DNA from: an uncultured Candidatus Saccharibacteria bacterium
GTDB lineage: Bacteria; Patescibacteriota; Saccharimonadia; Saccharimonadales; Saccharimonadaceae
Length of the DNA: 39,374 nt
Reading direction: 5' to 3'
Assembly: GCA_946500965.1 (NCBI GenBank)
Contig: CAMMXR010000001.1
Location: 1 to 39,374 of the forward strand
Part shown: positions 15,827 through 36,946 of the stretch, piece after piece
How the letters are laid out: each line of letters starts with the position of its first letter
Numbering within the stretch: the first letter of the stretch is position 1
Program-made: the position numbers and the translations under genes
Notes under the pieces: model-generated
What the model was told of the DNA's origin: nothing
What the model saw: the letters and a program-made list of their open reading frames with translations, nothing else
The model's database searches: none

Positions 15827-16522
15827 ATGTCGTCCAAGAACCCCAAAACCCTGATGCCGCTCCCCCATCCTTGGCCCGTCGTCTGGGGTTGTTTTTATGT
15901 CGCCATCCTTACCCTCGGGCTGCTCGCCCCCAACGGCTCCAGCATCACCTTCATCAAACTCACCGGCATCTTCCTCTGCGCCCTCTACGCTTTCTGGATG
16001 TTCCCGAGGGACCACCTACTCCAGCTCGCCCTGCTCGTCACCTCCGTCGCCGACCTCATCCTCGCCATTGACAACACTCTCGTAATCGGCGTCGTCGTTT
16101 TCCTTATCGCCCAGCTCATTCACCTCGCCCGCCTAGACTGGCCGCATTTCCGCCTCCCCATTCTCATCTATTCTCTCGTCGCCGCCACCGTCATCATCCT
16201 TGATATGATTCTAGATTTTGCGCCCTTGATGTATGTGGTCTGCTGTTTTTATGTCACCGCCCTCATCACCAACATCATCGTTTCCTGGCGCTGGTACCGC
16301 CAAGATCGCAACAACCTGCTCGCTTTCCTCGCCGTCACCGGCTTCACCCTTTTTCTAGCCTGCGACATCTGCACCGGCGTCTCCTACCTCTCTCGCACCG
16401 CTGTTCTCCCCGCCGTCCTTTTCGCACCCGCCAACTTTTTCGCCTGGGCTTTTTACTATCCTTCCCAAATCTTTATCTCAAACAGCTCAAAGTGTGCTAA
16501 AATACTTACCAAAGGAAGGTAA
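15827..16522 (+). CDS. YhhN/lysoplasmalogenase-like membrane protein
   Basis: Multiple TMs; ADLIL, FLIAQLIH, LFLACD motifs. Confidence 0.65.
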   Translation: MSSKNPKTLMPLPHPWPVVWGCFYVAILTLGLLAPNGSSITFIKLTGIFLCALYAFWMFPRDHLLQLALLVTSVADLILAIDNTLVIGVVVFLIAQLIHLARLDWPHFRLPILIYSLVAATVIILDMILDFAPLMYVVCCFYVTALITNIIVSWRWYRQDRNNLLAFLAVTGFTLFLACDICTGVSYLSRTAVLPAVLFAPANFFAWAFYYPSQIFISNSSKCAKILTKGR

Positions 16523-33529: not shown

Positions 33530-34444
33530 TTATGCTTCTTTACTTCGCTCTCCGTCCACACCCAGCAGCCCCAGCGCCATACACGTATCCCGGAGCAGCT
33601 TCTTCCGAAAATCCAACACCTGTACCTGCCAACCAAAAATCTGCCCGATTTCTTCCTTCCACAGCCACAGCCGCGGATCCAGCAGTACCACCACCGCCGG
33701 CTTCAGTGGCATCACCAATTCATCCGCATCCTCGCCCGGCCAGACCATCATCGCTCGCCGCTCACCCCGCTTTGCCAGTTGCCAAGCCCGCTCTCGCGCT
33801 TGCGCCACCTCAAACTGCGCAATCTTCGCCACCGTTGCCACCAGTTTCACCCGGTGCTTCTCAATCGTAATTGTCTGCGCTAGTGTCAAGCGCGTTCTTG
33901 ATCTGCTCAGCGTCTCCAACCGCGCTCCGCCCCGCACCGCCTCGGTCTGCGTCTCTAGCTTAAAATCCCGCGCCAAATCCCGCCACAAAATCTCCATCGT
34001 CATTAAATCACGATCTATCAACGTCCCCCAACTCCGCCCGTCCGGCAGCAGCCAGGTCAGCTTTGGCAAGTCCCGCTTCAGATCCATCAAGCGCTCATCC
34101 TCACCCACTTCCGCCCCCGCCAGCAGCGCCGCTGCGCCATCCCGTATACACCGCTGCCGCAGCAAACGCCGATTTATACCTAGCGCAACCAGGTTTTGCT
34201 CCGGATGGCGCTGCCTCAATTGCGTCAACCCCGCACCCACACAATCCGCCAACACGATTGCTGCCACCCGCCCCCAGAATCGCGCCAAGTTTTGCTCCGC
34301 CCGCTCCAGCCACGCCTCGCCCGTCACCTCCGTCTGCGCCCAATCTATCACTCGCACCACCTCCACCACTCCCAATTCTTCCTCCAAATACTCCGCCACC
34401 ACCTCACCCGCTCGCCCCCGACCATAAACTACAACCCGTAGCAT
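33530..34444 (-). CDS. Hypothetical protein, divergent glutamate-racemase-like
   Basis: 304-aa ORF with G-rich codons like ychF; segment order resembles MurI but catalytic motifs are altered. Confidence 0.6.
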   Translation of the reverse strand: MLRVVVYGRGRAGEVVAEYLEEELGVVEVVRVIDWAQTEVTGEAWLERAEQNLARFWGRVAAIVLADCVGAGLTQLRQRHPEQNLVALGINRRLLRQRCIRDGAAALLAGAEVGEDERLMDLKRDLPKLTWLLPDGRSWGTLIDRDLMTMEILWRDLARDFKLETQTEAVRGGARLETLSRSRTRLTLAQTITIEKHRVKLVATVAKIAQFEVAQARERAWQLAKRGERRAMMVWPGEDADELVMPLKPAVVVLLDPRLWLWKEEIGQIFGWQVQVLDFRKKLLRDTCMALGLLGVDGERSKEA

Positions 34445-34726: not shown

Positions 34727-34801
34727 TGGGGATTCGCCAAGTGGTAAGGCAGTGGGTTCTGGTCCCACCATTCGGGGGTTCGAATCCCTCATCCCCAGCC
34801 A
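34727..34801 (+). tRNA. tRNA-Gln(CUG)
   Basis: TGGGGAT/ATCCCCA acceptor, GTGGG-TTCTGGT-CCCAC, TTCGAAT loop, GCCA; TGCTATAAT at 34701. Confidence 0.96.
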
Positions 34802-34907
34802 ATAAAATGAGGGGAGCATGCTCCTCTCTTTTTATTGGCCTTGGACCGAGAATCAAACGGGTTCGTTATCTCGCGTAGCGAGATTTCTTTTCCCTCATCC
34901 CCAGCCA
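34785..34907 (+). repeat. 17-bp direct repeat of the tRNA-Gln 3' end flanking an 89-bp insert
   Basis: TCCCTCATCCCCAGCCA at 34785-34801 and 34891-34907. Confidence 0.9.
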
Positions 34908-35057: not shown

Positions 35058-35116
35058 ACTTGTGGAAAACTCCGTTAAAATTGCGCCCCGATTTTTTCCA
35101 TCGCTTTCTAAAATCA

Positions 35117-35287
35117 TGCTATAATAGTAGTGTCTATTCTAAACCACAATATTTGTGCGGAGTCGTAAAAACGGCACCGCATCTGCAAAAAGAACGGCTT
35201 TGCCTTCGATTTGTGGTTTGGAATAGACACCCAATGCGGTGTCGTTTTTTACCATAGCACCGCAGCACTAAGAAATAGGAGGTAGCG
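35117..35287 (+). promoter_or_regulatory. Promoter and highly structured leader of the FISUMP gene
   Basis: TGCTATAAT at 35117; helices 35130-35149/35211-35230 and 35165-35182/35234-35252; AGGAGG at 35277. Confidence 0.7.
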
Positions 35288-36826
35288 GTGTTAAGGATAC
35301 ATAGAGATATAAATGAGCAGAAAATCGTTCAACTGCCATGGCTAGAATTGATTGGAGTAGCCAGTTGTTGCATCTTACTTCTAATTCTTGGCGCCATGGT
35401 TTTTCCTTTATTGCCGCAGGAAGTGTATGCAACGCCCGATCTAGCTGATAGCACTGTAGCTCCGCGTGCTGGCGCGGTGTGCGGCCCTGGGGAGTACGAT
35501 CCATCTGTCTCTATTAGTCTCCCTTCTACCATAAACTTTGATTCTGTTATGCCTACTTCAGCCGGTGCTACTACCACGGCTACCGCTAGTCTGAATATAA
35601 CGACAACTAACACTGCAGACTACGACCTTTACCTCTATTCTTCCGATGGTGATAATAGCCTCAGACCCAAAGTCTCTTCCCTTGCCAACATCTCCTCTAT
35701 TGACGCAATCGCAGGAGATGTTGGCCTAACCTTAAGTAGCCTCAAGCCTAACACTTGGGGCTACAACCTTGGGGCAGAAGCGCCAACCGAGGCAACAATT
35801 TACTCTTCCATTCCAACCGATAACTCCACGCCAATCCAGACCAAGGATACTACAGCCACCGCTCAAGCAGACGACACTTATACCCTATCATTTGGCGCAA
35901 AAGTGGACACGACTATTCCGTCCGGAACCTATTCTAATACTGTGACTATAGCAGTAGTGGCCAGCCCGCTTGTATTTGGAGTCCAGTTTAACGGTAATGG
36001 GGCGGACGCTGGGAATATGGACCTTTTTGGCATGAGATGCCCGGGCAACGCTGCTTCGCTGCCAGCTAACACTTTTACGCGTGACGGGTATGTTTTTACT
36101 GGTTGGAACACGGCTCCCGATGGTAGTGGGGTATCCTATTCTGATGGAGGGACTTACATCGTTCCACATGAACCAAGTGAATATCTAATCACATTATACG
36201 CACAATGGGAGAGAGCTTATTACATACAGGACTTCACTAACTCTCAGTGCCAGAACCTAGCCTCAGATACCAACTTTACCGTAATAGATAAACGCGATGG
36301 TAATGACTATGCCGTCCGCTACATCAACGGCGCTTGCTGGATGACCCAGAACCTGCGGCTGGCTGGTGGAACCGCGCTCACCACGTCTGACTCTAACATA
36401 ACTCAGAATTACACCTTGCCAACCATTCAGCTTGCCGGTAATAGCAATTCCTATACTGAGCCGCAGACTACCATCAGCAGCGACACTTCCTACGGCGGCT
36501 ATTACAACTATTGCGCCGCATCAGCAGGAACAGTCTGCTCCCAAACTCAGGCAAGTGCCACCCAAGACATCTGCCCGAAGGGCTGGAGGTTGCCAACAGG
36601 TAGTGAGATAGACGGCATCACTAGCTATGTCTCCGCATTCTCGCCTGTCTATAGTGGCAACTACAACGGTGGCTCGCTCAGCGATACCGGCTCCAGCGGC
36701 CACTGGTGGTCAGCTACCGCACGCTTTGGCTACCCGCTCTCCCTGCGCTACAGCAGTGGTAGCTTGAATACCAGCCTCTACGACAACTACTACGGGTTCT
36801 CGGTGCGGTGTATCCGCTCTAGCTAG
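35288..36826 (+). CDS. Surface protein with Listeria-Bacteroides (InlB B-type) repeat and C-terminal FISUMP domain; candidate DGR target
   Basis: N-terminal TM; FNGNG..LPANTFTRDGYVFTGWNT.PDGSG; WMTQNL, YYNY.AA, ICPKGWRLPT, WWSAT, GFSVRC. Confidence 0.85.
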   Translation: MLRIHRDINEQKIVQLPWLELIGVASCCILLLILGAMVFPLLPQEVYATPDLADSTVAPRAGAVCGPGEYDPSVSISLPSTINFDSVMPTSAGATTTATASLNITTTNTADYDLYLYSSDGDNSLRPKVSSLANISSIDAIAGDVGLTLSSLKPNTWGYNLGAEAPTEATIYSSIPTDNSTPIQTKDTTATAQADDTYTLSFGAKVDTTIPSGTYSNTVTIAVVASPLVFGVQFNGNGADAGNMDLFGMRCPGNAASLPANTFTRDGYVFTGWNTAPDGSGVSYSDGGTYIVPHEPSEYLITLYAQWERAYYIQDFTNSQCQNLASDTNFTVIDKRDGNDYAVRYINGACWMTQNLRLAGGTALTTSDSNITQNYTLPTIQLAGNSNSYTEPQTTISSDTSYGGYYNYCAASAGTVCSQTQASATQDICPKGWRLPTGSEIDGITSYVSAFSPVYSGNYNGGSLSDTGSSGHWWSATARFGYPLSLRYSSGSLNTSLYDNYYGFSVRCIRSS

Positions 36827-36914
36827 TTAGCTCTTGTGCCTTTCTCCCGACCCCCACGGAGGACGTGCGCCGCGACCTGAGGGAGGTGGTGTCTGGGGGG
36901 CGGGGCGGGGAAAC

Positions 36915-36946
36915 CTAAGAGCAACGCCATCGGGCGTTGCTCTTAG
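36915..36946. other. Perfect 14-bp hairpin/cruciform
   Basis: CTAAGAGCAACGCC-ATCG-GGCGTTGCTCTTAG, no U tract. Confidence 0.8.

Follow-up and report, generated by a model that had tools for sequence, protein, structure and literature searches.

By the signature of its codon positions, the 3' end of a FISUMP gene from an uncultured Candidatus Saccharibacteria bacterium is a remote target of a DGR. The gene is situated in a stretch of 39,374 nucleotides, which was analysed as a whole and is referred to in the following as the window. On balance, we lean towards the reading that this region was written by a DGR at another locus, that it is static now, with the cassette likely lost or silenced, and that it forms the lectin-like end of a protein predicted to cap a donor-strand pilus.

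The FISUMP gene and the signature of its 3' end

The reading frame of 512 aa matches Fib_succ_major/FISUMP (E = 6.8e-14) and TIGR02145 (E = 1.6e-15) in a profile search; its features are given in Table 1. The hydrophobic leader is likely a Sec signal peptide, with a cleavage site that would, as placed by eye, lie near aa 48. The assembly holding the gene comprises 735 kb on 65 contigs, the shortest of them 2,597 nt long, and is 91% complete. The named runs containing the DNA of the window are mostly chicken gut metagenomes.

Table 1. Features of the FISUMP gene and its surroundings in the window
Feature	Position	Strand	Remarks
Structured leader, containing a terminator-like hairpin (35226-35251) as well as alternative pairings	35110..35287	+	common to the C15 and C5 loci
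FISUMP target gene, 512 aa	35288..36826	+	signal/membrane segment, pilin-like domain, Flg_new spacer, C-type-lectin-like FISUMP domain with variable region at its end
Hydrophobic N-terminal segment, aa 21-39	35348..35404	+	Kyte-Doolittle 2.77 vs at most 1.42 after aa 60
Pilin-like Ig domain, aa 70-229, predicted donor-strand acceptor	35495..35974	+	pLDDT 93.7; Foldseek; complex model
Listeria-Bacteroides repeat (Flg_new) spacer	35981..36208	+	PF09479 at aa 232-292, E = 8.8e-7; TIGR02543 at aa 264-307
FISUMP domain, C-type-lectin-like fold	36218..36823	+	model pLDDT 92.7; structural match to Lcl and Bd2740
Family-I variable region	36629..36793	+	template-fixed third positions; first and second positions varied
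Constant 3' section of the repeat, extending beyond the stop codon as far as the IMH-like end motif	36794..36857	+	comparison of paralogs and relatives
Downstream element with stem 36867-36873/36886-36892	36844..36892	+	kept behind four terminal family-I genes
Perfect 14-bp hairpin, no T-tract	36915..36946	+	private to the window locus

The leader upstream of the gene is strongly structured (z -7.0) and resembles G000 C15:11749-11947 as well as C5:13202-13277 and 16174-16344. Its two alternative pairings overlap the terminator-like hairpin and are kept in C15 despite sequence changes. An Rfam search returned only the tRNA and no match for the leader, which is a candidate attenuator for these surface genes. 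Of the tRNA (34727-34798), the 3' end (34785-34801) is repeated 106 nt downstream (34891-34907) and is followed there by a word of 30 nt found again on C5, an arrangement that resembles an integration scar. Still further upstream, a reading frame of 304 aa on the reverse strand (33530-34444) has no Pfam match; its start may recall glutamate racemase.

The motifs SPVYSG, WWSAT and SVRC and the codons at 36770-36793, from which the initial annotation had proposed a DGR variable region, are present as described there. The bias towards NNC/NNT codons holds in relation to the upstream part of the gene, with C or T in the third position of 49/62 codons (79%) vs 287/450 (64%; p = 0.02), but not in relation to the neighbouring glyA, which reaches 77% as well, and the caveat of a generally C-biased strand was justified. 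Depletion of A in the third position is stronger (2/62 in the region vs 86/450 upstream, p = 9e-4). Taken alone, the NNC/NNT bias would be weak evidence for a DGR.

The comparison of paralogous FISUMP ends, which had been suggested as a check, yields a clear DGR signature. In the genome, 19 matches to the FISUMP domain were obtained. Fourteen paralog ends were extracted, four of which (the internal one of C49, that of C5, and those of the first gene of C25 and the second gene of C39) were too diverged and were left out. The ten 3' ends compared are spread over eight contigs and fall into two families: six ends including that of the window in family I (C1, C21, C15, C49 and twice C23) and four in family II (C25, C8, C51, C39). 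In family I, differences at codon positions 1/2/3 amount to 0.28/0.23/0.49 upstream and to 0.34/0.27/0.16 in the last 60 codons, and in family II to 0.20/0.19/0.50 and 0.24/0.22/0.02, respectively. Synonymous divergence falls from 583/1277 (46%) upstream to 85/493 (17%) in the region among the six copies of family I, and from 159/326 (49%) to 4/248 (1.6%) among the four copies of family II. Despite this drop, positions 1 and 2 are as variable in the region as they are upstream. Since the upstream parts are half-saturated, yet third positions are common at ends situated on different contigs, the ends were rewritten from shared templates, one for each family.

The template closest to family I was found in another species of the genus (genome G188), and it is against this sequence of 70% identity, together with the paralog columns, that adenine specificity is read here. 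Among five family-I copies, 43/69 variable columns but only 10/120 invariant ones face an A of the G188 template (p = 3e-15), and with all six copies the proportions are 46/88 and 7/101. The window region itself deviates from this template at 31 of the 53 positions with A and at 30 of the 136 without. Seen in this way, variation is located at template-adenine positions and third positions are fixed, and both lines of evidence support the DGR origin that the initial annotation had proposed for the 3' region. The copies differ in how closely third positions are kept: deviations amount to 3/58 in the window copy, in whose variable region one codon is missing, to 15/59 in C15, to 1/59 in C21, to 0/59 in C23_11872, and to 0/57 in each of the four copies of family II. 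The zero or near-zero values of family II, C21 and C23_11872 are as would be expected for recent homing.

DGR cassettes of relatives and the homing end

An RT match exists in 97 of 150 genomes of the genus, not all of them being of the DGR type. From these, 29 RT loci were fetched because they lie near matches to the region or in well-assembled genomes, and they are thus not a random sample. An adenine-biased repeat pair is found at 27 of the 29, and at 21 the order is target, Avd-like gene, RT and a convergent template, with proteins of the FISUMP class as cassette targets. Summed over the fetched pairs, the substitutions of template A are 257 to G, 242 to T and 78 to C. We call the gene between target and RT Avd-like on account of its position. 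It encodes about 260-370 aa (e.g., L092:424-1380), and the G188 protein is without Pfam or NCBIfam match. Avd proteins are usually smaller than this. A second DGR class was met at L069 (G034:C31) and L072 (G103:C30), with an upstream template on the same strand, an accessory gene of about 150 aa and a different variable-region motif.

The G188 genome documents action in trans, as the initial annotation had supposed for the window gene. Its template differs from the adjacent target at 20 positions, 19 of which are A, and from three targets on other contigs by mismatches that fall on A in 20/20, 23/24 and 26/31 cases, whereas no RT was found in the fetched flanks of these three remote targets. 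A second G188 template shows 14/16 mismatches at A against another remote gene. Dispersed targets of a single template, with A-to-N differences, are described by Wu et al. (2018, PMC5758913) for the Treponema DGR and in the available part of their survey. Our system is similar to these in that one template serves several dispersed targets. It differs in comprising ten ends of two families on eight contigs in one genome and in the convergent template at 21 of the 29 genus loci, contig breaks hiding the actual distances. The inverted template was discarded as a novelty, since template and RT on different strands are already reported for some DGRs in the same source.

Families without a matching cassette occur in relatives as well. 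The dispersed ends of G034 do not match the fetched template; in G113 only one of five ends matches the fetched templates, and only partly (15/26 mismatches at A); and G012, which is 96% complete, possesses drifted ends without an RT match. Orphaned families are therefore not rare.

Concerning the 3' boundary, the repeats of relatives run past the stop codon and often end at a short motif that differs between target and template and behind which the target side has a stem-loop, and an imperfect repeat of this kind behind the mutated zone (IMH/IMH*) is known from other DGRs (PMC5758913). In the window, the target-side motif is found at 36844-36861, and it also follows the genes of C21, C49 and C15 (the shared motif spanning 36844-36885 overall), such that the IMH-like constant 3' end and the downstream motif are common to four terminal genes and match the target side of relatives. 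Position 36853 is C in the window alone and T in C21, C49 and C15. The stem is formed by Watson-Crick pairs in C21 and contains three G-T pairs in the window, where the fold of the element does not exceed that of shuffled sequences (z 0.5). Judged from its sequence and its conservation behind these genes, the element is likely a cis-acting homing element. Internal FISUMP domains are not followed by it.

The 14-bp hairpin further downstream, to which a role in targeting had been ascribed, is real (arms 36915-36928/36933-36946, 100% complementary, -17.2 kcal/mol, z -5.7), but it probably does not serve this function: it exists only at the window locus, where it is located 60 nt further on, and the homologous stretch behind C49 does not fold it. 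As a shared homing signal it was rejected. Family II (L096-L099, on C25, C8, C51 and C39) has a shared downstream hairpin of its own and exhibits no third-position drift. Its gene on C25 ends 48 nt from the contig end, within that hairpin, which is a candidate place for a missing cassette.

The missing cassette and the present state of the region

Neither an RT nor a template was found near the gene, in agreement with the initial annotation, nor anywhere else in the window or the assembly. In the suggested BLAST search of the region against the genome, all matches fall inside paralog reading frames and no non-coding template copy appears, and 19 templates of the genus likewise match only the paralog genes of the assembly. 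A PF00078 search of the assembly found no RT, five genus RTs gave a best E of 0.32 there in tblastn, and profiles of 120 RT homologues and 29 Avd-like proteins gave nothing at E 10, whereas they detected a control locus at 4e-131 and 1e-72. Two candidates for an accessory gene were dismissed: the reading frame downstream of the C21 gene has no similarity to Avd-like genes, and the single match of an Avd-like query, on C17, spans only residues 10-60 of a single protein and probably represents a helix-turn-helix. Outside the assembly, no template closer than about 71% was found among 368 other species of the genus, with two candidates scored per genome. The downstream element has no match on viral contigs, and a motif scan of genome contigs gave four matches, in unrelated taxa. 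The family-I genes found in a metagenome scan had no RT, and the DGRs that it yielded separately were of a different kind. The absence of template and RT from this and related genomes, named beforehand as speaking against a DGR, thus applies to this genome but not to its relatives, in which both are abundant.

The expectation that the region is hypervariable at present was not borne out. It is identical, letter by letter, in contigs of X6, X8, X9 and X13 (four studies with zero other letters, none of them flagged as source), and its 3' part is identical also in a fifth study, X7; the exact window protein exists on 13 contigs, of which the longest measures 411,620 nt. Ongoing variation between samples is not found at the contig level, and the window copy shows drift at non-adenine positions. 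In the orthologues of the C49 and C23 proteins, a single residue differs, and it lies outside the variable regions. Homologues more remote from the C23 protein diverge by 15-34% inside the region vs 9-15% outside, and one cluster member has 20 different residues in the region after 370 identical ones.

Family-I ends that can be compared between studies are the same, and contigs of X1, X6 and X7 contain at least three family-I ends that are absent from the bin. No template-like family-I end was found among the records listed (4/4 of X1, 8/13 of X6, 8/10 of X7) or among the 15/17 loose ends listed; these records had been pre-filtered, contigs drop rare variants, the runs have a depth of about 20-40x, and the samples may represent a single clonal strain. 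Assigned by hand, target-type ends account for 12 of the 13 X6 records, and a mixed loose end of X6 consists of C21 and an end also present in X1. This lack of a template-like family-I end in the runs speaks for a lost or silent family-I template, and we judge it somewhat probable, from these sequence comparisons, that the family-I cassette is lost or silent.

A possible but less probable alternative is that the region is a live remote target, the cassette being present but dropped from the assembly as a contig of about 2.2 kb and homing being slow or purged, such that contigs look fixed. The cassette core between the repeats measures 1,953-2,398 nt in 21 relatives and is shorter than the shortest contig of the bin (2,597 nt), and its non-assembly is possible for this reason; 47 of the 120 RT homologues lie on contigs shorter than that limit, and 30 of the 120 on contigs of 2.1-2.6 kb. 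An RT match in 97/150 genus genomes, the undrifted family II, the break of its C25 gene 48 nt from the contig end, inside the hairpin, and the lack in the bin of paralog ends present in the runs point in the same direction, as do the lower than average activity of CPR-clade DGRs and the under-detection at 20-50x, which are reported in the available part of Roux et al. (2021, PMC8144416). Against a live target stand the three runs of about 20-40x without a template-like family-I record, with 12/13 of the X6 records being target-type, the sameness of comparable family-I ends between studies, and the drift of the window copy at non-A sites.

Domain shuffling occurs, and so does conversion between tandem FISUMP domains (L051:4520-5979; P0010, P0039, P0057, P0248-P0250): the same variable region can be met at different positions, and a block of 14 residues is swapped between domains, although some of these cases may be effects of assembly consensus. 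Conversion thus also spreads written domains, as in L051, whose two tandem domains show no difference over the whole region and are distinct in their first 124 nt only. It might therefore be supposed that the window gene was never a direct target and received a DGR-written domain by duplication or gene conversion, which was then fixed. Identical variable regions in different proteins (P0010/P0039) and internal domains without a downstream element would fit this history, but the window copy possesses its own IMH-like element and a variable region common to no paralog seen, and remote homing is evident by signature in G188, so that we regard such an origin as improbable. An origin without any retroelement, by gene conversion among paralogs, diversifying selection and C-rich codon bias, could appeal to the third-position C/T content that glyA shares with the region (77% vs 79%) and to the inter-domain conversion, but it is very improbable, as conversion would homogenise all codon positions whereas only positions 1-2 vary (0.24/0.22/0.02 in family II), variable columns lie where the template of a relative has A, and the same protein class is targeted in relatives.

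In the reading preferred here, i.e., a region written from another locus and now static, the process would begin with cassettes of the kind found in the genus (target, Avd-like gene, RT and converging template), one template of which can match several dispersed FISUMP genes, as shown in relatives. The two families of dispersed 3' ends of the genome would have been written by two such templates; by its signature, the window gene is a member of family I. As in the established DGR mechanism, adenines of the template's AAC/AAT codons would be randomised by error-prone reverse transcription, and the target would be replaced by the cDNA from the IMH end. The window copy is identical wherever it was seen, has gathered non-adenine changes and may be a retained, selected variant. 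Retention of selected variants has been proposed for dispersed C-type-lectin paralogs of cyanobacteria that show remnant template homology without a nearby RT (Vallota-Eastman et al. 2020, PMC7517822). According to the available text, these are mostly cytosolic kinase fusions in genomes still containing the DGR, whereas in the present case secreted pilin fusions are found in an assembly without RT.

Lectin fold, predicted pilus and wider context

The modelled FISUMP domain resembles the C-terminal domain of Legionella Lcl (VIA Z 7.8, rmsd 2.9, 104 residues aligned) and Bdellovibrio Bd2740 (Z 7.4). Almost all top VIA rows are C-type-lectin-like, with middling Z values below 8; Foldseek gave no match at E <= 0.001 for this domain, and a sequence search of solved structures found nothing under E 0.05. 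The C-type-lectin-like fold assumed in the initial annotation is thus supported by a middling structural match, and its idea of a secreted adhesin by the hydrophobic leader together with this fold.

The pilin domain (aa 70-229) matches CFA/I (Foldseek E = 2.9e-4) and Csu (7e-4), the range being 3e-4 to 8e-4 with TM of about 0.45-0.5. Small stand-alone pilins are located beside one or two membrane-anchored DUF916-like genes at G000 C39:2504-4045 and C17:10088-12540. Those of C39 lie near two FISUMP genes. Across the genus, a DUF916-like partner adjoins 25 of 30 loci with pilin hits and is present in 145 of 150 genomes. By eye, a donor-strand-like N-terminus is seen in the family II proteins and the small pilins but not in family I. 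In the complex model, residues 1-16 of the C39 pilin lie between the first and last strands of the window pilin domain. The score is 0.73 vs 0.00 for the best control, a mark that 116/157 solved but only 2/215 mismatched pairs reach; runs with own alignments showed contact agreement of at least 97% and a partner pLDDT of at least 87, and likeness to solved pili may carry the score.

From these models, the window protein is predicted to be the lectin-fold tip adhesin of a donor-strand pilus. After Sec export, a membrane-anchored DUF916-like chaperone would hand the pilin domain over to the N-terminal strand of the small pilin, by which the varied lectin surface would come to be exposed at the tip of the fibre. 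The ligand may be a molecule on the host bacterium's surface or of the gut matrix, and a role in host recognition, also suggested in the initial annotation, would be in line with this.

The organization is similar to that described in the available part of a study on the Elr/WxL pilus (10.64898/2026.10.17.759780), in which a small pilin with an N-terminal donor strand is likewise found beside a DUF916-like protein whose membrane helix is C-terminal, and a large adhesin carries an acceptor pilin domain. There are also differences: of 2,871 Elr-type adhesins, 2,867 carry their pilin domain at the C-terminus, whereas that of the window protein is N-terminal and leaves the C-terminus free for the variable region, the adhesin genes are dispersed, and the WxL/WxLIP cut-offs are not reached. 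None of 22 pilins matches Pfam WxL (PF13731) at E <= 0.1; 7/16 chaperone-like partners match PF06030 weakly and none exceeds the cut-off of PF06030 or PF11797, such that, beyond these sub-threshold matches, the link to the WxL/Elr type consists of atlas leads. DGR variation of adhesive tips is reported for the type V pilus of gut Bacteroides (10.1101/2024.11.15.621889); phylum and pilus type are others there, as far as that source was available, and DGR-varied tips in gut bacteria are the shared trait.

FISUMP domains have been discussed as DGR targets, 43 of them in Bacteroidota of fresh and waste water (PMC11661182), and cellular DGRs of Patescibacteria are described as CPR clade 2, whose targets are usually without membrane segments or known domains and mostly aquatic (PMC8144416). 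In so far as these accounts were available, the present case agrees with both in the FISUMP domain as target and in the occurrence of cellular DGRs in Patescibacteria, and it differs from them in concerning animal-gut Saccharibacteria and proteins that combine a hydrophobic leader with pilin, spacer and lectin domains. CPR DGRs generally possess just one target according to the accessible part of a DGR survey. Remote targets, opposite-strand templates, remnant paralogs, FISUMP targets, CPR DGRs and usher-less donor-strand pili are thus all known already. Our literature searches, which were weak and of limited coverage, yielded no account of multi-template, many-target networks in gut Saccharibacteria, nor, with the same coverage, of DGR-varied tips with an N-terminal pilin domain; multi-target DGR networks on donor-strand pili look new, with some uncertainty as to their novelty.

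The FISUMP adhesin family is present in 132 of the 150 genus genomes. With some hesitation, we consider a genus-wide adhesin library conceivable, in which several DGR templates would each rewrite large numbers of lectin tips at dispersed loci, the tips being recombined by domain shuffling and attached, all through the same N-terminal pilin domain, to a single usher-less donor-strand pilus; the window gene would be an archived, selected entry of this library, a static member, which limits its own interest. Surveys restricted to contigs above 2.5 kb and to targets with a neighbouring RT would overlook systems of this kind, whereas third-position conservation among paralogs can reveal a DGR without its template. 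For the choice of bacterial hosts by Saccharibacteria, the family provides candidate determinants of specificity with known variable residues. If the library exists, an epibiont with a genome of 0.7 Mb would retune its host range in the way a phage retunes its tail fibre.
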